From: a virus
DNA length: 64,000 nt
IMG/VR virus record: IMGVR_UViG_3300012971_000018
Location: 47,907-111,906 of that record
Direction: 5' to 3' (one strand)
The notes below the pieces were generated by a model. That model searched no databases. It saw nothing but the letters and a program-made list of their open reading frames with translations, and was not told where the DNA came from. A program made the translations under genes and the position numbers. Shown one piece after another: positions 9,465-64,000 of this stretch (position 1 is the first letter of the stretch; each line of letters begins with the position of its first letter).

Positions 9465-12400
9465 ATGGGGTTGTTGTATGCGGCCCAGGCTACAGTCGAT
9501 GTTAGGGCGCGCCAGGAAGCCGTGCTCTACCAACGGATGGGCTGCAATATGTGCCCGCTTAACGATGTGCAGCCGGGGCGCGCCAATGCGACGGGTTCGG
9601 AGCATCCGCTAATATTATTCATAGGCGAAGCCCCCGGCAAGGAGGAGCAACGGACCGGCGAGCAGTTCGTCGGCGAGTCCGGGCAACTTCTGCGCCCGCG
9701 CATCCCGGAGGAATGGCTGCCGGATATTCGATGGACCAATACTGTTCATTGTCGTCCCTCGTATGGCAACGGCCACAATCGGACCCCCGAGCACGACGAG
9801 ATCGAGTGCTGCCGGCCGCGGTGGGTTGCCGACATCGAACGGACCAAGCCGAAGGCGATCTTTGCTTTCGGTAACGTCCCACTCCTGGCGATTACCAACT
9901 TTACCGGCATAACGCTGTGGCGCGGGAGGCGGCTGCCGGTAAGGATCGGGTCGCACGTCTGCTGGCTCTATCCCATGCTCCATCCGGCCCACATCCTGCG
10001 CCAGCGGCGGGACGAGGATCGTGGCAAGGATGCCAGGTTTGTTGGCTCCGAAGAGGAGCGGATGTTCGAGTTCGATCTCTACAAGGCATTGGACGAGGTC
10101 GACGCCGGACTGCCACGGCCGATCGTCCACGACGAGAAGGAAGCCCGCCGCGGCGTCGAGATTGTAACCGAGGGCGGGCGGGAAGGGCTGCACCGGATCG
10201 AGGCCGCGCTTAGGTGGGCGTCCGCGCAGGACGATATCGGGTTCGACTACGAGACGCTGGGGCTACGGCCGTATGGTGCCAATGCCAAGATACTTACGGT
10301 CGCGGTCGCGACTGCGGACCGTGCGATTGCGTTTCCGATCCACCATCGCGAAGCCCGGTTCTCCGACAAGGAGCGCAAGACAATCGAGGATTTGGTCTGC
10401 AATTTCCTGTGCCAGTCCGGGCGTGTGTGGGTGCATAATCTGTCCTTCGAGATGGAATGGACGGCGGTTAAGTTCGGCCGCGACCTGCTGTACGCTACGC
10501 AGTGGCAGGACACGGCGACGCAGGCTTCCATTATTGACGAGCGGAAAGGCAATACCAAGCCGGGATGCTTTTCCCTCGAATGGCTCGTAATGCAGTACTT
10601 CGGCTTTAACCTTAAGAAGCTGTCCCCGCTAAACAAAGCTAATCTCGACCGCGAGCCGCTGCCAAAGGTGCTCGCCTATAATGCGATGGACGCCAAGTAC
10701 CATCTGCGGCTTGGGCTGGAGCAGCAGGTAGTCATAAAGCAGCAGGGTCTGCAATCGGTCTACGAGCTGTCGTTGCGGCGGGTGCCGGCGGTCGTTACGT
10801 CGCAGGTCCTGGGCGTGCCGGTCGACCAGGACGAGAACGAGCGTCTGCACGCCAAGTACGCCAAGCGGGTCGCCAGCCTGGAGGCCGAAATCCAGCAGGT
10901 GCCGTTAATCCAGGGGTACAACAGCGACAACGCCGAGCCGTTTAACCCCGGCTCGAACCCGCAGTGCGTCGACGTTTTCTATCGGCGGCTAAAGCGCAAG
11001 GAGTGTCTGGTCGTCGACAAGTTCTCCAAGCGGGAGCGGCTGTCCTGCAATGAAGACGTACTAACCAAGATCGAGCACCCGCTGTCGAAGCTAATCGTCC
11101 GCTGGCGCAAGGCGAAGCGGCAGGACTCGACCTACATCCAAGCATTGGCCCCGGGGACCGAGAATTCGGCGCTGTGGCCCGACGGTCTTCTGCATAGTAC
11201 GTTCAACACTTACTGGGTCGAGACCGGCCGGCTAAGCTGCTCGGCCCCTTGGACCGAGGTTAAGACCAGTCGTGGTGTGGTCCAGATCAAGGACGTTATT
11301 GCAGGCGATTTGGTGTGGACCCACAGACAACGCTGGCGTTTAGTTACGCGGGCTTGGAGCAAAGGCTTCGAACAGATGTTCGACGTTGTATTGTCTAATG
11401 GGAAAGTTTTGACTTGCACCAAAAACCACCGTCTGCTATCCAAGGCCAGTGGCTGGATAACGGTTGGAGAGTTGTATGACGTATTCCAAGAGATGGGTCG
11501 AGACGCCGGGGAATATAAAGCGCGTACTGGCGCTTTATCGCAGCAAGGAGTTGGTTCCAACAGAGCAGATAGCCAAGACGTTGGGCACATCGGTACCAAA
11601 CGTCTACGAGGCTATCAAACGGAACATGCCATTGGTCGAGAAGCAGGCTCTATCATCTGTTCGCTATTCGGCATCGAAGCTGGGCACAAAAAATCCGATG
11701 CTGGGGCGAACTGGAGATCGGCATCCGAATTGGAAGGGGGAATGTTTGGATGGTCATGGTGGTTATTTGACCATAAAGGTTGGAAAGCGTCGTATTTTTC
11801 TCCACCACCACTTGCTTATGCAGGCATTGGGTCTACCAGAAGTCCCACGCGGTTGGATGGTACACCATATCGATGGCGACCCGTTGAACAACGACGTGGA
11901 CAATTTGGCTTTGGTGACGGCTCGCGGACACAAAGCTATCCACTACAGACAGTTGGAGACCAAGACGTTGCGATTAAAGAAATCAAAGCTGGCGGAAGCT
12001 TTGAAGTATTTGATCTAACAGTAGAGGAGGACGCCAGCTATGAGACCTGTGGAGTATTTTCGCACAATAGCGAATTTCCAAACCTTCAGAATTTCCCGAA
12101 GCGCGACGGCGAGGCCGTCGAGGTCCGCCGGCAGGTCCAGGCCGCCCCTGGATATAGTATCATATCTCTGGACCTGGGCCAGATCGAAGCCCGTGTCGTC
12201 GCGATGTTTACCAAGGACCCGGTCTATGTAAAGCAATTGTGGGACAAGTTCGACATCCACAAGGATTGGGCCGAGCGGATCGCTTTCGCCTATCCGGATC
12301 GGATCGGCGGGTCGAAGAACCTAAAAGACCCGAAGGTAATGAAGACCTTTCGCAGTGACATAAAGAACCAGTGGACCTTCCCTCTGCTCTACGGTGCATC

Positions 12401-13466: not shown

Positions 13467-14398
13467 GCCTGCTTATAAAGTATCGCCCTAGCTCCTGGGA
13501 CGAAGTTCTCGGCCAGGACCGTGTGCTCGACTCGCTGGAGACGGTCGTTAGCAAGCGGCAGACCCATTCTTTCCTGCTGGTCGGTCCGTCGGGCTGTGGG
13601 AAGACGACGCTGGCCCGGCTTATCGCCAAGAACCTGGGATGTAGTGAGCTAAACCTTATCGAGACCGATCCGGCGACCCACCCGGGGGTCGAGGATATCC
13701 GCGAGGTTATCTCGACGCTTAATACCCGGCCGCCCGGCGGCGGGACGCGGGTCGTTATCGTCGACGAGTGCCAGTTGTATTCGAAGAACGTCTGGACGGC
13801 GTTGCTAAAGATATCCGAGGACCCGCCGTCCTGGGTCTACTGGGTGTTCTGCACGACCGATGCGGGTAAGGTTCCGAGCGCAATGAAGACCCGGGCGGCG
13901 AGCTACGAGCTTCGCCCGGTAGCGCGCGCGGACCTCGAAGACATCGTTGTGTTTATCGCCCGATCCGAGAAGATGGACGTTCGCGCCGACGTTATGGCGC
14001 TGTGCGCAGACGAAGCCGGCGGTTCGCCGCGACAGGCGATCTCCAATCTTGTGGTGTGCGCCGGTGCGAAATCGAGGGCGGAAGCGATCGAGTTGCTAAA
14101 GAACGGTTACGCGGAGGACGAGGCCGGCGCATTCGAGCTGGCGCAGGTGCTCTACAAGACCGGCGGAGCATCGTGGGAGGAGATGCGAAGCGTGCTGGCG
14201 AAGTTGCACGAGGCCGGCGCCAATCCCGAGGGCGTGCGGCAAGTCGTCCGGGCCTACGGCACCAAGATGCTGCTGGGCAATCCCAAAAGTCCGCAGTCGG
14301 TGTGTGCAGTCCTAAATGCCTTTTCTACTCCGTTCAATTCTGCCGACAAGGTAACGCCGGTCTTGCTGGCGTGTGCCAATTTGTGCTTTGGAGATTAG
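13463..14398 (+). CDS. Clamp loader AAA+ (DnaX gamma/tau-like)
   Basis: KYRPSSWDEVLGQD, GPSGCGKTT, IVDEC, ALLKISEDPP, GGSPRQA. Confidence 0.92.
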   Translation: MSLLIKYRPSSWDEVLGQDRVLDSLETVVSKRQTHSFLLVGPSGCGKTTLARLIAKNLGCSELNLIETDPATHPGVEDIREVISTLNTRPPGGGTRVVIVDECQLYSKNVWTALLKISEDPPSWVYWVFCTTDAGKVPSAMKTRAASYELRPVARADLEDIVVFIARSEKMDVRADVMALCADEAGGSPRQAISNLVVCAGAKSRAEAIELLKNGYAEDEAGAFELAQVLYKTGGASWEEMRSVLAKLHEAGANPEGVRQVVRAYGTKMLLGNPKSPQSVCAVLNAFSTPFNSADKVTPVLLACANLCFGD

Positions 14399-14402
14399 GG
14401 TA

Positions 14403-14602
14403 GGTTAGGTGGTGTAGGGCAAGGTGAGGTAGGGTTTGGTTCGGTAGGATGCGGTCTGGTACGGTTAGGTCGGGTCCGGTGCGGTCAGGTAAGGTAAGGC
14501 GCGGTGGGGTTAGGTCCGGTGGGGTAGGGTCGTGTCGGGTTGGGTTCGGTGAGGTCTGGCGAGGTCAGGTTGGGTTGGTTGGGGTATGGTTTGGTAAGGT
14601 AA
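14403..14602 (+). repeat. GGY-NN pentamer tract, 40 units (putative guide ncRNA)
   Basis: ggtta ggtgg tgtag ggcaa ggtga ... ggtaa ggtaa in unbroken 5-nt phase, filling the intergenic gap. Confidence 0.95.
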
Positions 14603-21435: not shown

Positions 21436-21654
21436 GGTTCGGTGTGGCGAGGTGGGGTGAGGCAGGTCTGGTGAGGTTAGGTGGGATAGGGCGAGGTAAG
21501 GTCTGGTGGGGTGAGGTATGGTCCGGTACGGTGAGGCTGGGTAGGGTACGGTGAGGTTAGGTGGGATAGGGCGAGGTAGGGTTGGGTGCGGTATGGTGAG
21601 GCGAGGTTAGGTCCGGTCAGGTTCGGTGTGGTCCGGTAGGGTAAGGTTTGGTAT
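21436..21654 (+). repeat. GGY-NN pentamer tract, about 44 units (putative guide ncRNA)
   Basis: Starts 1 nt after the TerL stop; one 4-nt slip (ggca); its last unit overlaps the next ATG. Confidence 0.95.
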
Positions 21655-32799: not shown

Positions 32800-33560
32800 T
32801 CCATTCGCTAAACATAGGCGGCGGCCCGGGATTTAGAGCCGACGGCTGGCTTAACCTCGACGAGATGCAGAATGTCGCAGGCGAGGGTTTTATATTCGAC
32901 GCTACTTGCATCGTACCGCTCGCCGACAAATCGGTGCGGTTGGTCTACAGCTCCCATACGCTGGAGCATCTAGACGATCCCACGGTTGCACGCTTGCTGG
33001 AGGAGAGCCACCGTGTCCTTGCACCGGATGGCACATTGGTCATAAAGATACCCGACTTCGACGCACTGCTGGCGGCGTATCGCAATGATGACTTCGCCTA
33101 TTTGGACCTGCCGCTGTGGAACATGCCCGCGGTGGTTAACACGCTGGCCAATCGTGGCATGGTCGACTCGATCGCGACGCGGACGGCGTGGCTGTTCTGT
33201 GGCTGGTGGAACCGGGAATTCGGCCATCTGTTCGGCAATTACAGTCCGTACCGGCCCGGGGCCTACAATGGGCCACCCGTGCTAACCCAGGACAGGCTAA
33301 AGGGCATTCTCGCAATGTATTCGCCACACGACATCGCCGCGCGATTGCGGGAGCATGTCGTGGCCAAAGAGAAGCACTATACGTTTAACCACCAGAATGC
33401 CTGGAGCCGCAAGGAGTTTATAACGTTGTTGCAGGACCACGACTTTATCTGGACCTGCGACGACAAGGACTGGGTAATCGCGAGCCAGAGCGCCATCCCC
33501 GGGATCGAGGAAATGCGTAACATAAGCTACTACGTACAAGCGAGGAAAGGTCATGGGTGA
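32796..33560 (+). CDS. SAM-dependent methyltransferase
   Basis: LNIGGG, GWLNLD, VYSSHTLEHL, RVLAPDG.L.IKIPD. Confidence 0.8.
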   Translation: MIHSLNIGGGPGFRADGWLNLDEMQNVAGEGFIFDATCIVPLADKSVRLVYSSHTLEHLDDPTVARLLEESHRVLAPDGTLVIKIPDFDALLAAYRNDDFAYLDLPLWNMPAVVNTLANRGMVDSIATRTAWLFCGWWNREFGHLFGNYSPYRPGAYNGPPVLTQDRLKGILAMYSPHDIAARLREHVVAKEKHYTFNHQNAWSRKEFITLLQDHDFIWTCDDKDWVIASQSAIPGIEEMRNISYYVQARKGHG

Positions 33561-34692
33561 GTTAATAGGACTGGTTGGTAAGCCGCCGTCGCTGCGGAAC
33601 GTCTACGGCAATGCCGAGGTAATTGAGTTCCTGGAGAAATGGCTAAAGGCCGCGAAGCTCGGCAACATTAACTACGTTGCGCTAACTGCGACCTTGCCCC
33701 CCGATATTGCAATTAACGACTTTGCCGGCTCGATCGAGGGCGAGGAGAACGTCCTCGAAGCCATTATCGAGGGTCTGGTCCCGTTAATCCGGGAGTCACT
33801 TGCCAAGAAGGAACCGCCCCCGCAGGACGACGAGCTAAATGCCAGCTATCTAAGCTATCCGGTAACCAAGCTCTCGGTCGGCTTCGACTTTATCTTTAGC
33901 CTCGTTGCGCAGAAGATGGTCTGCAAGCGGGAAGGCATTGCCGGTCCGGTACGGATCGGCTTCTGGGCCGGCAAGTCCGGCACGATGGGGGTCGAGGGCG
34001 GTTACCGCAAGGGAATGTTCGACAACGTGGTTAAGCCGCTGCTGCCGATGTTCGGTGTGCTGGAGGACGAGCGCGCGATCTACGGCCACCGCTTCCACAA
34101 GTACGACTTCCGGCTGCGGGAGATCGTCGAGGCGTCGCTGGCCGGCGAGAAGGTGCCGACCTATATCCCGTCCGCGGCAGCTATGAACGCCGTTAACGAG
34201 ACCGTCGGGCCGGAAGACCCGATCGTCATAACGCTGCGCGAGAGCGATGCTTGGTCCCACCGCAATACGAACAACGATGCCTGGATTGCGTTTGCCAAAG
34301 ACCGCGAGCGCGAGGGCTACCCGGTCGTCTTCGTGCGCGATACCGCGAAGTACTCCGAGCCATTGGCCAACATGGCGACCTACCCCGCGGCTTCGCTGTC
34401 GCTGCCGATCCGCGCTGCACTCTACGAGCGCGCCCGGGTTAACTTCTTCGTCGGCAACGGTCCTTGCGATCTCGCCCTGTTTGGCTCGCGTCCCTGGATA
34501 CGCATCCAGCGCTACGACAAGGGGAGCCAGCACGAGGTCGAGAACGAGCGGTGGTGGAAGGCGATCGGGCTGGAGCCGGGGACCCAGATGCCCTGGTGCT
34601 CGGACGAGCAGAGGATTATCCTTGGCACCGACGACTACCGGACGATCTCGCAGGCTTGGGAAGAGCTAACCCGGCCGCGCATTCTCTCTTAG
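33553..34692 (+). CDS. Hypothetical protein, possible glycosyltransferase-like C-terminus
   Basis: ITLRE...HRN, RAALYE.A..NFFVGNGP; operon context. Confidence 0.5.
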   Translation: MGELIGLVGKPPSLRNVYGNAEVIEFLEKWLKAAKLGNINYVALTATLPPDIAINDFAGSIEGEENVLEAIIEGLVPLIRESLAKKEPPPQDDELNASYLSYPVTKLSVGFDFIFSLVAQKMVCKREGIAGPVRIGFWAGKSGTMGVEGGYRKGMFDNVVKPLLPMFGVLEDERAIYGHRFHKYDFRLREIVEASLAGEKVPTYIPSAAAMNAVNETVGPEDPIVITLRESDAWSHRNTNNDAWIAFAKDREREGYPVVFVRDTAKYSEPLANMATYPAASLSLPIRAALYERARVNFFVGNGPCDLALFGSRPWIRIQRYDKGSQHEVENERWWKAIGLEPGTQMPWCSDEQRIILGTDDYRTISQAWEELTRPRILS

Positions 34693-51986: not shown

Positions 51987-52381
51987 GGTGTGGTTCGGTT
52001 TGGTCGGGTAAGGTCCGGTGTGGCGAGGTGTGGTCAGGTCGGGTGCGGTACGGCTAGGTGTGGTAAGGTAAGGTCTGGTTGGGTATGGTCAGGTCGGGTC
52101 CGGTGGGGTCGGTTCAGGTAAGGTGGGATGCGGTATGGTTCGGTTTGGTAAGGTAGGGTGCGGCATGGTTCGGTCCGGTCGGGTTAGGTACGGTCCGGTA
52201 GTGTGAGGTGGGGTGTGGCATGGTTCGGTAGTGTTGGGTATGGTTCGGTTTTGTTAGGTTGGGCATGGTTGGGTCTGGTTAGGCGTGGTTCGGTTTGGTC
52301 CGGTTTGGTCGGGTCGGGTAAGGTCTGGTTAGGTGTGGTACGCCGTGGTACGGTGCGGTCCGGTGGGGTAGGGTATGGTGT
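51987..52381 (+). repeat. GGY-NN pentamer tract, 79 units (putative guide ncRNA)
   Basis: Longest tract; 5-nt phase unbroken over 395 nt. Confidence 0.95.
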
Positions 52382-53271: not shown

Positions 53272-53721
53272 ATGGCGACGGTGTCGGGAGGTAGGCGGTT
53301 AGAGCAGGCCCTTCTCGACATCGCCTACCGGCTCGGGAGCAATCCGCAGACCCTTAAGGTCGGGTTCCTGCAAGGCGCGACCTACCCGGACGGGACCCCG
53401 GTCGCGCTTATCGCTGCCATCCACAACTACGGCGCCCCGCGGGCCAACATCCCGCCGCGGCCGTTCTTCTCGAATATGATTAGAGAGAACGCCCACAAGT
53501 GGCCGGATGCGGTCTCGAAGAACCTTAAAGCCACCAATTACAGTGTCGACCGGACCCTCCACCGGCTGGGCGAAGGAATTAAGGGCCAGCTCCAGCAGGC
53601 CATCCGCGATTTCGCCGAGGTCCCGCTTAAGCCGGCGACGATCCGGCGCAAGGGCTTCGACAAGCAGCTAATCGATACCGGGCACATGCTGCGGTCGGTG
53701 GCCTACAAGGTGGAGGACTAA
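53272..53721 (+). CDS. Neck / tail-completion protein
   Basis: LKVGF...ATYPDG, IPPRPF, TIRRKGFDKQLIDTG.M..SV. Confidence 0.85.
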   Translation: MATVSGGRRLEQALLDIAYRLGSNPQTLKVGFLQGATYPDGTPVALIAAIHNYGAPRANIPPRPFFSNMIRENAHKWPDAVSKNLKATNYSVDRTLHRLGEGIKGQLQQAIRDFAEVPLKPATIRRKGFDKQLIDTGHMLRSVAYKVED

Positions 53722-54641
53722 TGCGCTTCCTCGTTAATATGTGCAACCATTCCTCGTTGGGCCAGACCTCCTTGGAGGACGTTATTGGCATCTTTGGCCA
53801 CCAGCTTCGCGCGCTCGGCCACCAGATCGTCTGGGACCCGAAAAATCTAAGCTTCCTAAATACCATGAAAATGGAAGGGATGAACATAATCGTCGAGGGG
53901 TTTACCCGGCCGGTAATCGATCTAATAGCGAATGCCTACTCGCAGGGTGCCCGGTTTATAATAATAGCTACGGAAGAGCCGACCCCGCAGGGCTTTAACC
54001 ACGGGACCCAGTTGGAGATGGTCCGCCGGCAGGAGATGTTCCCGCAGGCCGCCAAGTTCTGCGAAGGGATTATCTGTCTCGTCCCCGGCAAGCACGTAAC
54101 CGATTGGTACGGACAGTGGGCGCCGACGGCCTGGACCGAGCTGGGGTGGGCGCCGACGCTGGTGCGTTATACCAACCATGTCCCAACCCACGACTTCGGC
54201 TTCTACGGCTCGCTCTCGACCCGCCGCCACAAGATCGTAAAGCGGCTCGCGAAACGGTCCGGATCGGTAAAGGGCGTGCGGCTTATCGCCGACTTCCCGT
54301 CGCAGATCGAGCGCGACAATGCAATGCGCGACGCCAAGGTTATCGTCCAGATACGCAAGTTCGACCAGATGGGCTTGGTCTCCTCCTCGCGCTGCAATAC
54401 GGCGCTGTGCCTGGGGCGGCCGGTGGTCGCGGAGCCACATGACTTATCGAAACCGTGGGACGAGATCGTACGGTTTACCGATACGATCGAGCAGTTCTAC
54501 GATACCTGCCTGTTCGTTCGGTCGTTGTGGAGGGATATCCATCGCCAGCAGATGGAGGCGTTCCGGACCAAGCTGTCGCCCGAGAACTGCGTAGGACGGG
54601 CGTTTCGCGAGATCGGGTTGTTCAAATCGGAGGCGGCGTAA
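53721..54641 (+). CDS. Hypothetical protein, possible GT-B-like
   Basis: DFGFYGS...RR, AKVIV.IR, G.PVVAE. Confidence 0.5.
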   Translation: MRFLVNMCNHSSLGQTSLEDVIGIFGHQLRALGHQIVWDPKNLSFLNTMKMEGMNIIVEGFTRPVIDLIANAYSQGARFIIIATEEPTPQGFNHGTQLEMVRRQEMFPQAAKFCEGIICLVPGKHVTDWYGQWAPTAWTELGWAPTLVRYTNHVPTHDFGFYGSLSTRRHKIVKRLAKRSGSVKGVRLIADFPSQIERDNAMRDAKVIVQIRKFDQMGLVSSSRCNTALCLGRPVVAEPHDLSKPWDEIVRFTDTIEQFYDTCLFVRSLWRDIHRQQMEAFRTKLSPENCVGRAFREIGLFKSEAA

Positions 54642-55174
54642 TGGACGGCAAAACTGGTGGGGACGGTAGCTATGTGGGTTTGGCCCTGGGCGATACCGTT
54701 AGTTTTACAGGCGGAGCCGGTGGGACCTCCACGAACATCGTGGTCCCGGCCCCGGCCCAGCGCAAGTACCTTCCGACGCTCGCCGATCTCGTGGATCGGT
54801 TGACGATCGTCCAGCTAAAGGCGATCTTCCTGCCGGAGCACACCGAGGAATACGTCCAGGAGCGTGCCGATATCGAGCACGACATCGACCTAATTATCGA
54901 GGAGAAGGACATCCGGTTTACGGCCGCGGATGTGCATGCCATATGCATGATTATGCTTACCAACCGGTTTATCTGGGAAAACGAGTCCAAGGCCCGGGCC
55001 GGCGGCGACGAGCAGGACAAGCTGCTTAAGACCACCCATTCAATAAACGGCGTCCGCAACACCGCGAAGAACGCGCTGTCGCGGGCCGACAGTGGCCGTC
55101 GGGACTACAAAATTGACTCGCTGGCGGCCGACCTTCCTTCTGAATTCGGAAATTGGAGGGTGTTCGGGGTATAG
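54641..55174 (+). CDS. Helical hypothetical protein
   Basis: LADLVDRLTIVQLK...N..IWE.E...R pattern, seen in sugar-modification loci. Confidence 0.55.
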   Translation: MDGKTGGDGSYVGLALGDTVSFTGGAGGTSTNIVVPAPAQRKYLPTLADLVDRLTIVQLKAIFLPEHTEEYVQERADIEHDIDLIIEEKDIRFTAADVHAICMIMLTNRFIWENESKARAGGDEQDKLLKTTHSINGVRNTAKNALSRADSGRRDYKIDSLAADLPSEFGNWRVFGV

Positions 55175-55186
55175 CTTGGTTGTTGC

Positions 55187-55725
55187 GGTCCGGTCCGGTG
55201 GGGTGTGGTGGGGTCTGGTCCGGTTTGGTAAGGTGGCGTGGGGTGGGGTAGGGTTCGGTTCGGTATGGTTTGGTGAGGTGCGGTAAGGTAGGGCTTTATT
55301 TGTAGATTTTCTGCGGTGGGGTATGGTTCGGTCTGGTGAGGCGAGGTGCGGTAAGGTCGGGTGATGTGCGGTGGGGTATGGTCGGGTGGGGTCTGGTCCG
55401 GTATGGTAGGGCTTTATTTGTAGATTTTCTGCGGTCGGGTTAGGTGAGGTACGGTATGGTGCGGTCCGGTAAGGTTGGGTGTGGTCGGGTATGGTCGGGT
55501 GCCGTTCGGTGAGGTGTGGTGGAGTCGGGTTAGGTTGGGTCCGGTAAGGTGCGGTCTGGTAGGGCTTTATTTGTAGATTTTCTGCGGTGCGGTCTGGTAC
55601 GGCGAGGTAAGGCGAGGTAGGGTGCGGTCAGGTGACGTCGGGTGCGGTTCGGTCAGGTGCGGTAAGGTTTGGTCAGGTGCGGTATGGTGCGGTGCGGTGT
55701 TGTGAGGTAAGGTGTGGTAAGGTCC
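55187..55725 (+). ncRNA. Array of four GGY-NN units (21, 19, 26 and 28 pentamers) separated by an identical linker; putative guide-RNA array
   Basis: GGTAGGGC-TTTATTTGTAGATTTTCTGC occurs exactly three times (linkers 55295-55314, 55413-55432, 55566-55585). Confidence 0.85.
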
Positions 55726-55741
55726 TTAAAGGAGACGTAAC

Positions 55742-56071
55742 GTGGTAACTGTCTACGTACATATTGTTGGTACCACACCATTGCTGCACCGCCGGTTCGA
55801 CGATTTCTTCCCATCCAATTGGATTATCGGTGCGATCCGCGAGGCCGCCTCGAACCACAAGCTCCGCGGCTCGCGCAAATTGGCGAAGCTCTTGGTTCCG
55901 GTTGCGGTCCATGTTCCCACCGAGAACATCCAGCTCCTTACCGGTGATGGCAAATCGCACATTAAGGACTGTAATGTCGAGGTACTTATAGCGTATCGGC
56001 AGGGCCGACGGATTGTATTTTGGTCCGGTGTGTTAAGGGGTGGTCCGGCATGGTCGGGTTGGGTCGGGTAA
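55742..56071 (+). pseudogene. Internally deleted, truncated paralog of the RAMP-like gene
   Basis: Same AAGGAGACGTAACGTG start; FPS.WI.G.IREA.SNHKLRGSRK and L.GDGKS.IKD shared with 56151-56726; lacks about 34 aa and the whole C-terminal half. Confidence 0.8.
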
Positions 56072-56095
56072 GTTTGTTCAGGTTGGGTATGGCTC
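56022..56095 (+). repeat. Short degenerate GGY-NN tract
   Basis: About 14 units with several motif substitutions and one slip. Confidence 0.7.
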
Positions 56096-56150
56096 TTAAG
56101 TCAGTGTAAAGCAACGTAAGCAACGTAAACGCAAACTAAGGAGACGTAAC

Positions 56151-56726
56151 GTGCTAACTATCGACATCCAGCTTCTTGGTACCACTGCAATGCTGCACCA
56201 CAAGTTCGAGGCGGAGGCGGAGAACCCGAAGGCGACGAGGAACGTCGTCGTCGACCACGGCACCCCCCGCGAGCAGGCCGAGAAGGTCGTCTACCGCGAC
56301 GACAATGGTCTGTTCTACTTCCCGTCCAGTTGGATTACCGGTTCGATCCGGGAGGCCGGCTCGAACCACAAGCTCCGCGGCTCGCGCAAGTCCACCAAGT
56401 TCGTGGTCCCGGCGGCGATCCGCGTCGTCTCGCCGGACATCCCGCTCCTTAACGGCGACGGCAAGTCGCGCATTAAGGACTACGAGGTCGACAGCCGCCC
56501 GGTTACGATCCCGGCGACCAAGGGCCGGATTATGCGGCACCGCCCCCGGTTCGATTGCTGGTCGGCGAAGTTCCCCTTGGTTATTAACGACGACCTGCTG
56601 CCGGAGGAGTTCGTCCAGCAGTTGCTTACCGAGGCCGGCCAGTCGCAGGGCATCGGCGATTTCCGCCCCAACACCCGCGGCCCCTTCGGCTGCTTCCGGG
56701 TCGTTTCCTGGGCCAAGGCGAAGTAA
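56151..56726 (+). CDS. Standalone RAMP/Cas7-like RNA-binding protein (putative effector of the GGY-NN RNAs)
   Basis: N-terminal strand I.I.LLGTT.MLHH, YFPSSWITGSIREA helix, R.RPRF..W, C-terminal Gly-rich loop AG...GIGDFRP..GPFGCFRV; AAGGAG RBS; tracts on both sides. Confidence 0.75.
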   Translation: MLTIDIQLLGTTAMLHHKFEAEAENPKATRNVVVDHGTPREQAEKVVYRDDNGLFYFPSSWITGSIREAGSNHKLRGSRKSTKFVVPAAIRVVSPDIPLLNGDGKSRIKDYEVDSRPVTIPATKGRIMRHRPRFDCWSAKFPLVINDDLLPEEFVQQLLTEAGQSQGIGDFRPNTRGPFGCFRVVSWAKAK

Positions 56727-56759
56727 CGCGGCGGGCCTGTGCATTTAATAGGCCAGCAG

Positions 56760-56800
56760 AGGGCGGGGACTGTGTCCCCGCCTTCCCTCCATTCTGTTTT
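56760..56800 (+). terminator. GC-rich hairpin between the RAMP-like gene and the next tract
   Basis: GGCGGGGAC-TGT-GTCCCCGCC followed by a pyrimidine/T run. Confidence 0.55.
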
Positions 56801-56801
56801 T

Positions 56802-57036
56802 GGTCCGGTGTGGTCGGGTCCGGTGCGGTTGGGTTGGGTACGGTCTGGTTCGGTATGGTCAGGTCCGGTTGGGTACGGTATGGTTTGGTAAGGTTTGGTG
56901 CGGTAAGGTTCGGTTGGGTGCGGTCTGGTAGGGTCGGGTCCGGTATGGTCCGGTTCGGTGGGGTCCGGTTCGGTGGGGTAGGGTTCGGTGGGGTCCGGTT
57001 CGGTGGGGTAGGGTTTGGTTTGGTGAGGTTTGGCCG
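56802..57036 (+). repeat. GGY-NN pentamer tract, 47 units
   Basis: In-phase pentamers with an internal tandem duplication near the 3' end. Confidence 0.95.
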
Positions 57037-57131
57037 TGGCTTCCGGTATTTGGCGACAGATAATTGTCTTTGTGGTTATCCAATCGGTTCCGATCGCGCT
57101 CGCGTTGGTGCTAATCGGAATGTTGCGGTAG
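57036..57131 (+). CDS. 31-aa hydrophobic peptide between two tracts
   Basis: GTG..TAG, MASGIWRQIIVFVVIQSVPIALALVLIGMLR. Confidence 0.45.
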   Translation: MASGIWRQIIVFVVIQSVPIALALVLIGMLR

Positions 57132-57231
57132 GGTCGGGTAAGGTGCGGTCGGGTCAGGTTTGGTCTGGTGCGGCGAGGTGGGGTATGCCGAGGTCCGGTA
57201 TGGCGAGGTTAGGTCGGGTAAGGTAGGGTTT
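57127..57231 (+). repeat. GGY-NN pentamer tract, 21 units
   Basis: Ends ggtaa ggtag ggttt immediately before ATG 57232. Confidence 0.95.
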
Positions 57232-57792
57232 ATGGCTGATAAAACTCCGTACTTCCTCGCACTGTGCGAGGCGATGCGTCTGTTAAGCATGGACCCACGT
57301 ACGTTCTTCGTCGGCCAGGGCGTCGGATGCGCGGGCACGTTTATGACCGACACGCTGCGCGACGTCCCGAAAGAGAAGCTTCTCGAATTCCCGGTGGCCG
57401 AGGACTTGCAGCTCGGGTTTTGTACCGGGCTGTCGCTTAAGGGCTTCGTCCCGGTTAGCATCTTCCCGCGCTGGAACTTCCTCGTCTGCGCGGCGAACCA
57501 GTTGGTAAACCATCTCGACAAGCTGCCGTTGTTCTCGGACTACCATCCGAAGGTTATAATCCGGACCGCGGCGCCGTCGTCGGTACCGATCGACCCCGGT
57601 CCCCAGCACATGGGGAACTACTCGGTGGCGTTCCGGTCGATGCTGGAGACGGTCGACATCGTCGACCTGTACATGGCCGAGAGTATCGTCCCGGCCTATG
57701 CCGCGGCGCTCGCGTCCCGACGCTCGACGATCCTGGTGGAAAGCATGGCGGCCTATGGGTGGTCTACCCCGCCGTCGGGGGTTTCGCGATGA
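57232..57792 (+). CDS. TPP-dependent enzyme, E1-beta/transketolase pyrimidine-binding subunit
   Basis: FVGQGV, EFPVAEDLQLG..TGL, NQLVNHLDK, GPQH. Confidence 0.85.
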   Translation: MADKTPYFLALCEAMRLLSMDPRTFFVGQGVGCAGTFMTDTLRDVPKEKLLEFPVAEDLQLGFCTGLSLKGFVPVSIFPRWNFLVCAANQLVNHLDKLPLFSDYHPKVIIRTAAPSSVPIDPGPQHMGNYSVAFRSMLETVDIVDLYMAESIVPAYAAALASRRSTILVESMAAYGWSTPPSGVSR

Positions 57793-58433
57793 CCTCCGCG
57801 AGTAAGGACTATACCGCGGAACGGCTGCTGCGGTTCGAGCAGCAAATCGCCGACGAGTTCGAGACCGGAGCGATCCGGGCGCCTATCCATCTCGGCGGTG
57901 GGAACGAGGCGCAGCTTATCGACTACTTTAACACCAGCGTACAGGACTGGGACTGGGTACTCTGCTCGTGGCGGTCGCACTACCACTGCCTGCTTAAGGG
58001 CGTTCCGCCGGACGTGCTGCGCGCGGCTATTCGTGCCGGACGGTCGGTCTCCCTGTGCTTCCCGGACCAGCGGATACTGTCGTCTGGCATTGTCGGCGGG
58101 ACCGCTCCGATTGCGCTCGGGCTGGCATGGCCTGGGAACTACACAGCGCCTACGCCTACACCGATCCGGGTGCACTGCTTTATAGGGGACATGACCGAGA
58201 AGGCGGGCATCGTGCGCGAGGCGATGGAGTACGGTGCGCGCCACGGTCTTAGCATCGTCTGGATCGTCGAGGACAACGGGCTATCGGTCTGCACACCGAC
58301 GGATGTGTCGTGGGGACTTGGGAAAACGCCTGTTAACAGGCTGTCGTACAAGTACGAGCTTTCGCGGCCCCATGCCGGAACCGGCCGGTGGGTCGATTTT
58401 AGCAGAGGAAGCGCGAGCAAAACGGGGTTTTGA
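57789..58433 (+). CDS. TPP-dependent enzyme, E1-alpha subunit
   Basis: PIHLGGGNE, SWRSHYH.L.KG, SGIVGG, FIGD...EDNGLS TPP motif. Confidence 0.85.
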   Translation: MTSASKDYTAERLLRFEQQIADEFETGAIRAPIHLGGGNEAQLIDYFNTSVQDWDWVLCSWRSHYHCLLKGVPPDVLRAAIRAGRSVSLCFPDQRILSSGIVGGTAPIALGLAWPGNYTAPTPTPIRVHCFIGDMTEKAGIVREAMEYGARHGLSIVWIVEDNGLSVCTPTDVSWGLGKTPVNRLSYKYELSRPHAGTGRWVDFSRGSASKTGF

Positions 58434-58435
58434 AC

Positions 58436-58790
58436 GGTTCGGTGCGGTGTGGTACGGTAGGGTATGGTGCGGTTGGGTACGGTGCGGTAGGCTGCGGTAA
58501 GGTAAGGCTTTGTTTGTACCGTTTTAAGTTTTGGTCGGTTTTGGTCGGGTTCGGTAGGGTATGGTAAGGTCGGGTAAGGTCCGGTTAGGTCTGGTCAGGT
58601 GGGGTGGGGTTTGGTCCGGCGAGGTGAGGTGCGGTAAGGTAAGGCTTTAGTTTGTTTGCGTACGGTAAGGTGCGGTTTGGTTAGGTCTGGTAGGGTTGGG
58701 TAAGGTATGGTTTGGTTGTGTGTGGTTCGGTTCGGTAAGGTAGGGTGTGGTTCGGTCCGGTTAGGTAAGGCTTTAGTTGTTGCGTTCTCC
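58436..58790 (+). ncRNA. Array of three GGY-NN units (14, 22 and 21 pentamers) ending in related GGTAAGGCTTT linkers
   Basis: ggtaa-ggc-tttgtttgtac (ggc at 58506), ggtaa-ggc-tttagtttgtttgcg (58643), ggtaa-ggc-tttagttgttgcg (58769). Confidence 0.85.
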
Positions 58791-58933
58791 ATTCCCGGTT
58801 TCGCGTTTTGGAGATTTATCTGCCCTTAACGGCGGCTAAGGGTGCGCGTCCGAGCCCGATCCTGCCTGCTAAGGGTTTTACACAGACACGGACGGTCGCA
58901 GCCGGGGCCACAGCGCCCCGGCAGCTTCGTTAA

Positions 58934-59013
58934 GGTTGGGCGAGGTAAGGTGGGGTGGGGTAGTGTGTGGTCAGGTGTTGTTGGGTAGGGTACGGTTCGG
59001 TTTGGTAAGGTAG
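58934..59013 (+). repeat. GGY-NN pentamer tract, 16 units
   Basis: In-phase pentamers preceded by a GCCGGGGC...GCCCCGGC hairpin. Confidence 0.9.
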
Positions 59014-59048
59014 GTACGATCGTGCATCCACCATAAGGGAGATGCCAA

Positions 59049-59357
59049 ATGAATCCGGGGCTTACCGAAGAAGGTGCGAAGGCCGCAGTCGGCATTATCG
59101 ACGCCTTAAAGACGCAGCCGGCCACATTGGCTATGATCGTGGTATCGTTTGGCTTGCTCGGGTATACGTTCTACGAGGGCCACACATTCAACGCGCAGCG
59201 CGGAGAGATGTTCGGAAAGTTTCTTGAGCAGCAGAAAGAGATGCAGGTGCTCCTGTCGAAATGCGTGGTCCCCGGGCAGACGTTCCGACGGCCGACACTT
59301 CTACCCAAGCCGGCCATCGAGCGTATTCCAGAGCCTAAGCCAGAGACTAAGCCATGA
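59049..59357 (+). CDS. Single-TM membrane protein
   Basis: IIDALKTQP..LAMIVVSFGLLGYTFY hydrophobic segment. Confidence 0.65.
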   Translation: MNPGLTEEGAKAAVGIIDALKTQPATLAMIVVSFGLLGYTFYEGHTFNAQRGEMFGKFLEQQKEMQVLLSKCVVPGQTFRRPTLLPKPAIERIPEPKPETKP

Positions 59358-59578
59358 TTGTGTTGCACAAGGGCACGTTCGAGTATCTTAACCCGACCGA
59401 GATGCAGAAGACCAGGATGTCGGTCATGCGAGTCAACTTCCGGAACATGGCCGATGCCATTGCCGACAACGTTCCACCCGGCGCCGATCGCGATTATGCC
59501 CTGCGCCTGCTGCGCTCGGCGGCCAGTTGGGTTAACATTGCAATTACCCGGAAGGACGACGGAACTCCACGGGAATAG
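59354..59578 (+). CDS. Small helical-hairpin protein, Acb2/Tad1-like
   Basis: FEY.NPT..Q...M...R..F...A..I...VP.G.DR..AL..L..A..W.N.AI. Confidence 0.5.
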   Translation: MIVLHKGTFEYLNPTEMQKTRMSVMRVNFRNMADAIADNVPPGADRDYALRLLRSAASWVNIAITRKDDGTPRE

Positions 59579-59585
59579 TTAGGTG

Positions 59586-59745
59586 TGTGGGGTGGGGTTA
59601 GGTATGGTCAGGTCGGGTATGGTTGGGTTCGGTAAGGTAAGGTAGGGTTGGGTTTGGTTAGGTTAGGTCAGGTAGGGTTCGGTGCGGTTGGTTTTGGTGC
59701 GGTTTGGTCTGGTGGGGTCCGGTTCGGTTAGGTCAGGTAAGGTGT
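59586..59745 (+). repeat. GGY-NN pentamer tract, about 32 units
   Basis: In-phase pentamers filling the gap before the ColD-like gene. Confidence 0.95.
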
Positions 59746-60916
59746 GGGGGCTGCTGTGTCAAAGTCGTGGTGGTATCCGACGGCGTTTAGCTTATGGGGC
59801 GACGAGGAATACGAGGCAATCGGTCGGGTCGTACAGACGGATCGCTTTACGATGGGCGAAGAGGTCGCGGCTTTCGAGCGCGAGTTCGCCGACTACCACG
59901 GCATGAAACATGGGATTATGGTTAACTCTGGCTCTTCGGCCAATTTAATCATGGTCGCGGCACTGTTCGCTCTCGGCCGGTTACAGCGTGGCGACAAGGT
60001 GCTGGTCCCGGCGCTGGCTTGGTCGACGACCTACGCTCCCCTTATCCAGCATGGGCTCGATCTGGAGCTGGTCGACTGCGACGGGACGTGGTGCGCGTTC
60101 GACCCCGAGCCGCTCGACCACGAAGACATAAAGCTTATCGTCTCGGTCCCCATTCTCGGTGCGCCCCAGGTCTACGCCAATACGCAGCGGATGGTCGCGG
60201 ATACGTGGTGTATCCCGATGGTCGAGGACAACTGCGAGGCGCTTGGAGCTTCCGTCCATGGCCACCCGTGCGGGACGCGCGGGTTGATGAACTCCTTTAG
60301 CTTCTTCTACTCGCACCAGCTTAGCGCAATCGAAGGCGGGATGGTCCTAACCGACGACGACGACTGCGCCCGGATGTGTCGTATCCTGCGGGCGCACGGC
60401 TGGACCCGGGATGTCGAGGCCCCGAAGTCGTTCGACGAGGAATACAACTTTACGCACTTCGGATACAACGTCCGGCCGGTCGAGATGCACGCCGCGATAG
60501 CCCGCTGCCAGCTTAGGAAGCTAAAGGACTTCGTCGATGCCCGGCGCGCCAACCTTAAGTTCTTCCACTCCCGGCGAGACTACTATGGCCTCCCCATTAA
60601 GCTCCAGCAGGTTAAGGGTCTCTACACCTCCCCGTTCGCCCTTCCATTCATGGTGGAGACGTCCGAGCTACGGAACAAGGTGGTGGTGGCGCTCCGCGCC
60701 GCCGATATCGACTGTCGCCTGCCGACTGGCGGCTGTTTCCAGATGCATCCGTACGGTGCTCCTTGGCGCGACCAAGCGACGCCCAATGCGCGTCGGGTCC
60801 ACGAGACCGGACTATTCCTAGGCAATGCGCCGTTCGCAATCGAGGACAAGATCGACCGCGCCTGCCAGATTATCCAAGCAGCGTTAACCGGAACACGTAG
60901 GGAAAGTGTATCGTGA
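59744..60916 (+). CDS. DegT/DnrJ-family PLP enzyme, ColD-like NDP-4-keto-6-deoxyhexose 3-dehydratase
   Basis: FTMG..V..FE..FA, MVNSGSSANL, EDNCE, SFFYSHQ..AIEGGM (His at the usual Schiff-base Lys), GYNVRP; start 59744 or 59756. Confidence 0.85.
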   Translation: MGAAVSKSWWYPTAFSLWGDEEYEAIGRVVQTDRFTMGEEVAAFEREFADYHGMKHGIMVNSGSSANLIMVAALFALGRLQRGDKVLVPALAWSTTYAPLIQHGLDLELVDCDGTWCAFDPEPLDHEDIKLIVSVPILGAPQVYANTQRMVADTWCIPMVEDNCEALGASVHGHPCGTRGLMNSFSFFYSHQLSAIEGGMVLTDDDDCARMCRILRAHGWTRDVEAPKSFDEEYNFTHFGYNVRPVEMHAAIARCQLRKLKDFVDARRANLKFFHSRRDYYGLPIKLQQVKGLYTSPFALPFMVETSELRNKVVVALRAADIDCRLPTGGCFQMHPYGAPWRDQATPNARRVHETGLFLGNAPFAIEDKIDRACQIIQAALTGTRRESVS

Positions 60917-61851
60917 AAATCCTTGTAACAGGTGGCGCCGGATATCTGGGATCGGTTCTGGTCGAAGAGCTGTTGCGAACGGATCGGCTGTCGATCGACA
61001 AGGTTGTCGTGCTCGACAACTTCATGTACGGGCAGACCTCGCTCTCCCATCTGTGCTGGGACGACGTTCTGGAGATCGTCCGCGGCGACGCCCGACGGAT
61101 TACCAGGGACTTTGTCTCGGAGTTCGATGTCGTAATCCCGCTCGCGGCGATCGTCGGTGCACCGGCTTGCGATGCCAATATTACCGCGGCAATCTCGACC
61201 AATGCGGACGCTATCGAAGCGCTCGTCTGTAACATGAACCTCGACCAGCGGCTAATAATCCCGATCTCCAATTCCGGCTATGGGGTCGGGGAGAAGGGAG
61301 TGCTGCTAACGGAAAAGGCCCCGCTTAATCCGGTCTCGCTCTATGGCAAGAACAAGGTCTTCGCCGAGACAGCAGCGATGGAGCATGGCAACACGATTAG
61401 CCTCCGACTTGCCACCGTGTTTGGCATGTCGCCGCGGATGCGCATGGACCTGCTCGTTAACGATTTCGTCTGGCGTGCGGTCCACGATAAGGCGGTGGTG
61501 CTGTTCGAGGCAGACTTCCGGCGCAACTACATCCACATCCGCGACGTCGCCCGCACCGTAATCCACTCCCTATTCTATTGGCAGGAGATGAAGAACAATA
61601 TCTACAACGTCGGCCTGTCGTCCGCCAATCTATCGAAGCGGCAGCTTTGCCAGGAGATAAAGAAGCAGGTCGAGGGCTTTGTCTTTGTGGAGGCGGAGGT
61701 CGGCGAGGACCCGGACAAGCGGGACTACGTCGTCTCCAATGCGAAGCTGGAAGCGACCGGATGGTCCCCAAGATGGAGCCTTTCCGCCGGCATCGCGGAG
61801 CTTGTTAAGGGCTACCGAATGTTTCGGAAGGTCCAGTACGGCAACATCTAG
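60913..61851 (+). CDS. NAD-dependent epimerase/dehydratase
   Basis: ILVTGGAGYLG, LAAIVG, YGKNK, RLATVFG, RNYIHIRD. Confidence 0.92.
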   Translation: MKILVTGGAGYLGSVLVEELLRTDRLSIDKVVVLDNFMYGQTSLSHLCWDDVLEIVRGDARRITRDFVSEFDVVIPLAAIVGAPACDANITAAISTNADAIEALVCNMNLDQRLIIPISNSGYGVGEKGVLLTEKAPLNPVSLYGKNKVFAETAAMEHGNTISLRLATVFGMSPRMRMDLLVNDFVWRAVHDKAVVLFEADFRRNYIHIRDVARTVIHSLFYWQEMKNNIYNVGLSSANLSKRQLCQEIKKQVEGFVFVEAEVGEDPDKRDYVVSNAKLEATGWSPRWSLSAGIAELVKGYRMFRKVQYGNI

Positions 61852-62105: not shown

Positions 62106-62300
62106 GGCGAGGTCTGGTACGGTCGGGTCGGGTAAGGTCAGGTGGGGTAAGGTAGGGTAGGGTGCGGTAAGGTGGTGTCCGGTGGGGTAGGGTCGGGTAA
62201 GGTGGGGTTTGGTAAGGTTAGGTGTGGTCTGGTGGGGTCGGGTCCGGTGCGGTGATGTAGGGTTCGGTTGGGTAGGGTGAGGTTAGGTCGGGTGAGGTAT
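62106..62300 (+). repeat. GGY-NN pentamer tract, 39 units
   Basis: In-phase pentamers; the last unit overlaps ATG 62299. Confidence 0.95.
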
Positions 62301-64000
62301 GGACCTTCTAATTATCAATCCAGGTGCCGTCCATGGGATTTACGGTCCGCTCGGGGATACGCTGGTCGCGGTCGAGCCCCCGCTGTGGTGCCGGTTAATC
62401 GCCGGCTATGTCCGTGCCCGGGGCTGCGACGTTCGTATCCACGACATGGAGGCCCACCGTACGTCGCCGGCCGCGGTCGCCCGGCTAGTCCAGCTTTCCA
62501 GCCCGACGCTCGTCTGCGTCGCGGTCTACGGCCACCAGCCTTCCGCCTCGACCCAGCAGATGGTCGGGGCCGGCGCGGTCTGCAAGGCGATTAAGAAGCT
62601 GCTTCCGAGCCAGCCGATCGTTATGGTTGGCGGCCATCCGTCGGCGCTTCCGGAGTACACGCTCCAGACCGAGGCGGTCGACTACGTTTGCGCGGGCGAG
62701 GGTCCGGCAACCGTTCTGGGGCTGCTCGATACCGATAACAACGAAGCAATCCCCGGATTGGTCTGGCGCCGCGGGACTACGATCGTAAAGAACCCGCCCG
62801 CGCCGCTAATCGAGGACCTGGGAGAACTGCATGGCGAGGCTTGGGACCTCCTGCCGATGCACCTCTATCGTCCGCACAATTGGCAGTGCTTTGGCGATAT
62901 GGCTCGTCGGGACCAGCCTTACGCTTCGATCTACACCTCCCTTAGCTGTCCCTATCGGTGTCTCGAAGGCAACGTAAAGGTCAATACGATCTATGGAAAT
63001 ATTCCGATCAAGACGCTGGCCGAATGTTTTGGCGATGCGGGCGTTCCCATTTACACTTACGATCCGGCGAGCGGCCGGGCATTTATCGCCGATGGCGTTA
63101 AGATTAGGAAGTACGGTAACAAGGAACAGCTCGTCCGTGTGCATTTCGACGATGGTAGCCACATCGACTGTACCCCCGACCATCGGTTCTTGCAATTTAA
63201 GTGGAGCAACGGTAGGTCGAACAGTTCCGAATGGGAGTGCGAGGCGCAACATCTCGCCCCCGGATCGCACGTACGCGCACTGCGGACGGAGCAACATCTG
63301 CTAGGTCGTTACTATATATCTTGGTCTCGTATGGGCAGAGCCTTTCGCTCCAGAATGGTTGCCGAGTATCTGTTGGGTCGAAGACTTAGACGGACAGAGC
63401 CGGTACACCACTTAGACCACGATATATCGAACGACCATCCGAGCAATCTACAGATTTGCGGATCGGCAAAGGAGCATTTTAGGCTCCATCCTGAAATATC
63501 TGCACGGATGCGTTCCGATAATCCAACCAAGAATGGCATGTCGGCCAAGTGGCGCGAGAGTATAGTGCGGGCCAATCGTGGCAAAGTACGGTCGCCCGAG
63601 GCGCGTATGCGTTATCGGTTATCCAAATTAGGCAAGAAAAATCCCAATTATCGACACGGTCGTCGAACCGGCGGGTCGTCCCGTCTAGAGGTCAACCATC
63701 GTGTAGCGTACGTCGAGCCGCTGGCCGAGCGCGGGGATGTCTATTGTTTGACTGTGCCGGAAACTGGTTGGTTCTATGCCAATAATGTTCTCGTTAAGAA
63801 TTGCAACTTCTGCTGCATCGCTGCGCCCTTCCTGGGAAGCAATCGGTATCGAATGCGAAGCCCGGTTGCGGTTGTGGACGAGATTGTCCGGCTCTATTGG
63901 CAGCACAAGGTCCGGACGTTCAAGATCGTGGACGAGATGTTTGTCCTTAACGAGAAGCACTACACCGCGATCTGCAACGGTCTAATCGCCTCCGGGATTG
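62299..64000 (+). CDS. Cobalamin-binding radical SAM enzyme, intein-containing, 3'-truncated (absent from the ORF track)
   Basis: Manual translation MDLLIINPG..EPPLW..IAGY, GGHPSALPE, GEG, TSLSCPYR[intein]CNFCC, RSP..VVDEI, KIVDEMF. Confidence 0.88.
   Translation, partial: MDLLIINPGAVHGIYGPLGDTLVAVEPPLWCRLIAGYVRARGCDVRIHDMEAHRTSPAAVARLVQLSSPTLVCVAVYGHQPSASTQQMVGAGAVCKAIKKLLPSQPIVMVGGHPSALPEYTLQTEAVDYVCAGEGPATVLGLLDTDNNEAIPGLVWRRGTTIVKNPPAPLIEDLGELHGEAWDLLPMHLYRPHNWQCFGDMARRDQPYASIYTSLSCPYRCLEGNVKVNTIYGNIPIKTLAECFGDAGVPIYTYDPASGRAFIADGVKIRKYGNKEQLVRVHFDDGSHIDCTPDHRFLQFKWSNGRSNSSEWECEAQHLAPGSHVRALRTEQHLLGRYYISWSRMGRAFRSRMVAEYLLGRRLRRTEPVHHLDHDISNDHPSNLQICGSAKEHFRLHPEISARMRSDNPTKNGMSAKWRESIVRANRGKVRSPEARMRYRLSKLGKKNPNYRHGRRTGGSSRLEVNHRVAYVEPLAERGDVYCLTVPETGWFYANNVLVKNCNFCCIAAPFLGSNRYRMRSPVAVVDEIVRLYWQHKVRTFKIVDEMFVLNEKHYTAICNGLIASGI
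62959..63801 (+). mobile_element. Intein with HNH endonuclease splitting the radical SAM CxxxCxxC motif
   Basis: Begins CLEGNV, block B CTPDH, VHHLDHDISNDHPSNL, ends DVYCLTV...FYANNVLVKN followed by Cys. Confidence 0.9.

Follow-up and report, generated by a model that had tools for sequence, protein, structure and literature searches.

A Vipr homologue and a four-unit GGY-NN array in an uncultured soil phage: a probable VIPR system

A candidate VIPR array and its Vipr homologue

VIPR (Viral Interference Programmable Repeat) is a CRISPR-like DNA silencer described in three 2026 bioRxiv preprints (10.64898/2026.04.26.720920, 10.64898/2026.04.26.720927 and 10.64898/2026.10.15.759431), which distinguish seven types. 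It is reported to combine a small RAMP protein, Vipr, with vrRNAs in which a GGY triplet alternates with two variable bases (NN) and which carry a 3' tail, and to obey a '1-nt skip rule' whereby the NN pairs with double-stranded DNA and one base, mostly the codon wobble position, is skipped per unit (10.64898/2026.04.26.720920). The skip rule is described as countering synonymous escape by rival mobile elements (10.64898/2026.04.26.720920; 10.64898/2026.10.15.759431), and the same series reports filament and triplex structures (10.64898/2026.04.26.720927) and a contest between phages and satellites that involves VIPR (10.64898/2026.10.15.759431). Published guides span 9–16 NN units with a target threshold of 0.8 NN identity, and the systems show no self-targeting (10.64898/2026.04.26.720920). 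The type II exemplar, that of Escherichia phage SUSP1, comprises Vipr, vrRNA and Vap1.

Here we examined a window of 64,000 nucleotides, to which all coordinates refer. It forms the right-hand end of a phage genome of 111,906 bp and 60% G+C, and contains replication, packaging and head genes of phage type. The original prediction had singled out 55315-55725, where NN strings read like coding sequence with every third base left blank, and this span proved to be units 2–4 of a four-unit array that begins at 55187 (Table 1). We consider it very probable that the four units at 55187-55725 are guides of a phage VIPR system, since the protein encoded just downstream is homologous to Vipr, has kept the residues that contact GGY, and is predicted to adopt the Csm3/Cas7 fold.

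Table 1. Positions of the array, the vipr genes and the other GGY-NN tracts in the window
Feature	Position	Strand	Remarks
Dispersed tract, 41 pentamers	14398..14602	+	
Dispersed tracts, 6 + 38 pentamers	21436..21654	+	register shift at 21465
Dispersed tract, 79 pentamers	51987..52381	+	without spacers
Putative vrRNA unit 1	55187..55291	+	21 GGY-NN pentamers
23-nt spacer/tail copy 1	55292..55314	+	same sequence in all three copies
Putative vrRNA unit 2	55315..55409	+	19 GGY-NN pentamers
23-nt spacer/tail copy 2	55410..55432	+	
Putative vrRNA unit 3	55433..55562	+	26 GGY-NN pentamers; 2 TA and 2 TG among its NN
23-nt spacer/tail copy 3	55563..55585	+	
Putative vrRNA unit 4	55586..55725	+	28 GGY-NN pentamers, final NN = CC
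Truncated vipr paralogue	55742..56071	+	109 codons; aligns to Vipr residues 1-137
10-unit pentamer tract	56022-56071	+	at 3' end of truncated vipr paralogue
vipr	56151..56726	+	191-aa Cas7-like RAMP, SUSP1 Vipr homologue
Tract, 46 pentamers	56802..57031	+	immediately 3' of vipr
Tract, 21 pentamers	57127..57231	+	ends 3 nt before ATG 57235
Second spaced array, tracts of 14, 20 and 21 pentamers	58436..58768	+	tail starting GGCTTT after each tract
Dispersed tract, 16 pentamers	58934..59013	+	
Dispersed tract, 31 pentamers	59591..59745	+	
Dispersed tract, 39 pentamers	62106..62300	+	overlaps ATG at 62299

Using tblastn with the 191-aa protein we found matches in 124 phage records, SUSP1 included, and the SUSP1 match is an annotated 195-aa ORF with GGY-NN tracts on its flanks. 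Pairwise BLASTP against this ORF gave an E-value of 1e-10 and 37% identity, confined to the C-terminal 60 residues. In SUSP1 Vipr the GGY-contacting residues are reported to be H17, R138, D177, W178 and R179 (10.64898/2026.04.26.720927), and their counterparts here are H17, R131, D170, F171 and R172, the first by reading both N-termini and the other four from the BLASTP alignment. Over 32 homologues R131, D170 and R172 are invariant, H17 is kept in at least 90%, and the G-loop (GIGDFRP...GPFG) is retained throughout. Furthermore, an AlphaFold (AF2) model of the protein (mean pLDDT 87.9) returned Csm3/Cas7 chains as the best Foldseek matches in the PDB (E 7e-8 to 1e-5, top probability 1.00, TM 0.55–0.62), among them 9ash_F (E 7e-8) and 6ifn_E (E 1.3e-6), the latter being the chain reported as the query used by the discoverers of VIPR (10.64898/2026.04.26.720920). 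With 1071 homologues at E <= 1e-3 the protein belongs to a large family, which has no Pfam or NCBIfam name; the 191-aa protein itself falls into one PHROG of unknown function and gave a weak PADLOC match to Csm5 (E 0.0054).

VIPR is characterised by a stand-alone small RAMP with an RRM core, a glycine-rich loop and a thumb, and by tandem runs of four or more GGY-NN (YNNGG) pentamers adjoining vipr. The locus combines a stand-alone small RAMP with Vipr homology and conserved contact residues, runs of 21, 19, 26 and 28 pentamers upstream of vipr and of 46 downstream, all on its own strand, and a lack of self-targets. In this it resembles the SUSP1 type II system, which likewise is phage-borne, encodes a RAMP of similar size (195 aa, against 191 aa here) with the G-loop and the thumb arginine, has its tracts next to the gene on the same strand, followed by a constant stretch (here after units 1–3), and does not target itself. 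Unlike the published systems, the units here are longer (19–28 NN, and up to 79 NN in spacer-free tracts), and unlike SUSP1 there is no recognised vap gene, the 17 tracts of the genome are dispersed over 48 kb, and the place of the pseudoknot tail is taken by a 23-nt spacer in which no more than a weak 5-bp hairpin can form, while sequence similarity to SUSP1 Vipr is limited to the C-terminal stretch given above. The departures from the type II exemplar are thus longer units, some tracts without spacers, the 48-kb spread, a short and little-structured tail and no recognised vap.

An invariable 3' tail is only partly in evidence, as identical 23-nt sequences follow units 1–3 whereas unit 4 has none and leads into the ribosome-binding site of the ORF that follows. 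The possible 5-bp hairpin lies at the 3' end of the spacer and is no better than in shuffled sequences (z -0.3 to -0.6). Scanning 54300-57300 for promoters and terminators gave nothing beyond shuffles, Rfam at gathering thresholds had no matches in the whole window, no tRNA or tmRNA gene was found in the window, and the phage collection had no blastn match to 54000-60000. Among public sequencing runs, one of DNA and none of RNA was listed as containing the sequence.

By analogy with the published type II system, the array would be transcribed and then cut into vrRNAs, with one Vipr protomer per pentamer hiding the GGY and presenting the two variable bases. The resulting filament would bind double-stranded DNA, reading NN-x-NN-x... 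with the third base skipped, and would silence transcription there; the genes targeted probably belong to a phage, satellite or prophage that competes with this one. That the skip rule extends to this Vipr clade is expected from homology. The original prediction, in proposing guides that skip the wobble base to defeat synonymous escape, had the right kind of mechanism, already published for VIPR; no target was found in the phage's own genome, in 81 related loci or among 225 listed seed matches, and its portal idea found no support. It had re-derived the published VIPR code from raw sequence alone. What the locus adds is one uncultured 112-kb soil phage to the carriers of VIPR, and test material for the limit of guide length, the processing of spacer-free tracts and the 1-nt skip rule outside type II; knowledge of the VIPR mechanism is unchanged by it, and the reading is right in kind and already published.

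Comparison with Class 1 CRISPR systems shows where the likeness ends. The Cas7/Csm3 filament on crRNA has the same fold as that predicted for Vipr, one protomer per short RNA step and periodic unpaired bases, but the VIPR step is of 5 nt with three bases hidden whereas that of Cas7/Csm3 is of 6 nt with one flipped base, and the VIPR guide is a built-in repeat scaffold rather than an acquired spacer. No other cas gene was recognised here and no CRISPR repeat is present. Three identical 23-nt elements alternating with variable stretches beside a Cas7-like gene could nevertheless be taken for a CRISPR-like array, with the 23-nt element as repeat and the 95-140-nt tracts as spacers derived from invaders. 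Most tracts have no such 23-nt repeat, however, and the supposed spacers keep to a strict period of 5 with a constant GGY and so are not copies of foreign DNA. Moreover, searches with NCBIfam and PADLOC found no other Cas-like protein among the four searched (53721-54641, 54455-55174, 55742-56071, 56151-56726), and neither Pfam (15 window proteins) nor PHROGs (37) named a Cas family. We give this explanation next to no credence; a CRISPR-Cas array was rejected on the pentamer periodicity, the sole Cas match being the weak Csm5 hit of the RAMP itself.

Relatives, neighbours and a truncated second vipr

We compared the locus with 81 related viral loci, in 77 of which vipr shares its strand with a GGY-NN tract that mostly adjoins the gene directly. 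Twelve of 13 neighbouring genes tested here have no match in these loci and the remaining one (g57759) matches a single locus (L056). As none of the 13 is common to more than one of the 81 loci, the vipr gene and its tract move as a unit between phage backgrounds. From the same comparison of the 13 neighbours, and from a 212-aa family that adjoins vipr in 21 loci and is missing here, no vap accessory gene was recognised; since published VIPR systems vary in vap content, this does not exclude membership.

Between the four-unit array and the intact vipr sits a truncated paralogue, which is 38% identical to Vipr over residues 1-137 with a 34-residue internal gap, and in which the C-terminal half, the thumb arginine and the G-loop are missing. 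This second, truncated vipr suggests that the upstream array came in with another VIPR cassette. Spacers between tracts differ widely among the relatives (L010, L023, L034, L041, L060, L068 and others), being of 2 nt, of 14–15 nt, of 21–24 nt that include a small hairpin and a run of U, or of 43–60 nt, and array architecture is variable within one protein clade.

GGY-NN tracts across the phage genome

The genome holds 17 GGY-NN tracts with 476 units in total, all of them on the + strand, intergenic and inside the window, from 14398 to 62300; the minus strand has none. The constant triplet is GGT in 423 units and GGC in 24. Several tracts end at or near the next start codon (14602 with ATG 14613, 57231 with ATG 57235, 62300 with ATG 62299), and would thus form the entire 5' leader of those genes.

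One tentative interpretation is that the phage represents a long-guide VIPR clade, with guides much longer than the published 9–16 units, at 19–28 NN per spaced unit and as many as 79 NN where spacers are absent. Tracts set in intergenic leaders at nine or more places of the late and metabolic region might then be co-transcribed with the phage's own genes, possibly regulate them too, and make up, with their 476 units, a genome-wide guide repertoire instead of one compact locus. We regard this as unlikely; if true, guides of 19–28 NN would mean DNA footprints of 57–84 bp.

The position of the tracts also bears on whether they are guides at all, as G-rich sequences that are without exception intergenic and on the coding strand, several of them running up to a start codon, might act in cis as leaders, as ribosome standby or Shine-Dalgarno-like sites, or as G-quadruplex elements. 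We think this extremely unlikely, given that repeats of this type accompany vipr homologues in 77 of the 81 loci, whose phage backgrounds are otherwise unrelated, that the published guide code calls for just such variable NN between constant GGY triplets, and that the folding energy of one whole unit is not better than that of shuffles (z +0.72). A TRAP-like periodic RNA-binding site, a G-quadruplex and a Shine-Dalgarno-like leader had all been candidates and were dropped upon the Vipr homology.

Tracts away from vipr are known from solo or orphan vrRNAs, which are described in SUSP1-family phages and F5 satellites and which likewise lie far from vipr or occur without it (10.64898/2026.10.15.759431). 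Unlike those carriers, this phage has an intact vipr, and its dispersed tracts are long and sit between genes of structural and metabolic operons. According to the same preprint, the solo vrRNAs of satellites and of phages without vipr serve as decoys or 'guns for hire' (10.64898/2026.10.15.759431); in such a role the tracts would load onto a rival's Vipr or redirect it to harmless sites, and would not arm the phage's own Vipr against coding genes. This would suit the distance of most of the 17 tracts from vipr and the outcome of the searches, in which no coding target turned up, but the vipr gene right beside the array is intact and has kept its contact residues, and no guide matched the vipr genes or tracts of the 81 relatives. 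We therefore hold it to be very unlikely here, and keep to the reading of the array as guides for the phage's own Vipr.

Several features of the tracts and their surroundings were observed in passing. In the tract at 21465-21654 a six-unit block reappears 16 units further on, and near the end of that at 56802-57031 a TC-GG-CC-TC-GG-AG block stands in three copies; these internal duplications could be duplicated guides or mark unit boundaries. The triplet GGC is found in 14 of 33 units with NN = GA (as at 55340-55344, 55601-55605 and 55611-55615) compared with 10 of the 414 others (Fisher p 9e-12), and in those units avoids the word TGA, which GGTGA would contain. GGTCA (16 units) is never altered to GGCCA in this phage, and the relatives' tracts show no such coupling, with GGC in 59% of units before GA and in 55% overall. 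A Pfam search of the genes between tracts (57235-58433, 59354-59578, 59744-61851 and 62299-63999) pointed to split genes for an E1-like thiamine enzyme (weak matches), a small ORF with a sub-threshold match to the Acb2/Tad1 hairpin domain (E 8e-4), a DegT-type aminotransferase, an NAD epimerase and a B12-binding protein with an intein.

Guide text and the search for targets

At the level of letters the NN strings of the original prediction are exact. Splitting 55315-55409 into pentamers returns all 19 NN of unit 2, and for unit 4 (55586-55725) the 27 NN that had been given are correct and are followed by a 28th, CC; the decoded peptides of both units follow from the standard code. The absence of TA and TG holds for units 2 and 4, and also for unit 1, but fails for unit 3 within the same span (Table 1). 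Over all 17 tracts the NN come close to a uniform composition, with 24 TA and 25 TG among 476 NN where uniformity would give 29.75 each. Heterogeneity among tracts is weakly significant, at p = 0.026 in a permutation test that counts the NN falling in tracts without TA or TG.

We scored the NN against the codon position 1-2 frequencies of the phage's own genes, relative to a uniform model. Units 2 and 4 gain 4.2 and 6.9 bits, respectively, whereas the 476 NN together lose 32 bits. Phases that skip the wobble base outscore four other models of phase and strand by 47–83 bits. A test with 5-NN words over ~1.1 Mb of clade DNA showed no wobble preference overall, the wobble-phase fraction being 0.349 for the real tracts, 0.343 +/- 0.028 for random NN and 0.375 for NN shuffled in order; unit 2 alone did show such a preference, at 0.577, and unit 4 stood at 0.220. 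The coding-like appearance of the NN text is thus an exact observation that these statistics support only weakly.

The parallel between unit 4 and the phage's own portal segment at 24533 was confirmed at 7 of 20 NN, in frame, as counted originally, but 46 of 223,692 phage genome positions match the same 20 NN at seven or more, which is the level of chance and does not favour portal genes as targets. Gapped searches for long matches, in the phage's own genome and in the 81 related loci, likewise gave none above shuffled guides for the reported units. In the own genome (111,906 bp) at skip 1, the best score of every tract lay within those of its shuffled guides, and over skips of 0–3 only the trivial self match at skip 3 stood out; the tract at 62106 scored 12, below its shuffle mean of 13.4. 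For units 1–4, neither the own genome nor the 81 loci showed a guide lying beside a target-like neighbouring gene. At the protein level, decoded guides compared with the six-frame translation of the own genome gave nothing clearly over 12 shuffles, the marginal excesses over the shuffle maxima being those of unit 1 in either orientation (62 and 60 vs 58), of unit 2 antisense (52 vs 47) and of the tract at 58664 sense (55 vs 54). That of unit 1 presumably reflects low complexity. Across the 81 related loci (~1 Mb) no unit of 55315-55725 rose above its shuffles, and only the tract at 56802 beat its four shuffled guides (20 vs a maximum of 16), with a match off the wobble phase of the longest ORF.

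We also used a seed-and-extend search, with six 8-NN seeds against viral_contigs, one 10-NN seed against metagenome_contigs, and one 10-NN and one 9-NN seed against genome_contigs. None of the 225 listed seed matches extends, the best reaching 12/28 NN for unit 4, 11/19 for unit 2 and 12/26 for unit 3. Best full-length identities for units 1–4 were 0.56–0.71, below the 0.8 of the preprints, in a 2.5-Mb set that is biased by the seed matches included in it. The absence of a target is weak evidence, as exact seeds miss targets with mismatches in the seed, unit 3 was represented by two seeds only, and the prophages of the host are unknown.

The first 8 NN of unit 2 occur in at least 113 viral stretches, all of which, among those listed, encode G-[IM]-S-L-[DE]-[DE]-A-[KN], and the five other 8-NN seeds each match at least 10–32 stretches; no motif like that of unit 2 was found in the phage's own PolA. 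A reading frame was called where the longest open frame had at least 120 codons and exceeded the next by at least 30. On this basis the skipped base fell on the wobble position in 103 of the 129 frame-callable cases among the 225 listed seed matches, a count that is drawn from matches which are not targets, includes many near-identical contigs and has no shuffled-seed control, and the excess of wobble phase is a hint.

Finally, we turned the comparison round and used the 146 unique tracts of the relatives as guides. Against the ~1 Mb of related loci their score distributions were the same at skips of 0, 1 and 2, the sole exception being one score of 22 at skip 1. Against the present genome the top score was 18, from one tract of locus L043 (10576-10690), which pairs with 34297-34331 in the gene at 33553-34692 (9 of 12 NN in full, 21 of 24 bases) and skips the wobble position of a 388-codon frame; as the top score among 146 tracts this may be chance. 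In a second relative, L032, the guide at 9897-9971 matches 9567-9608 of its own locus, within an ORF ~330 bp upstream, at 10 of 14 NN and in wobble phase.
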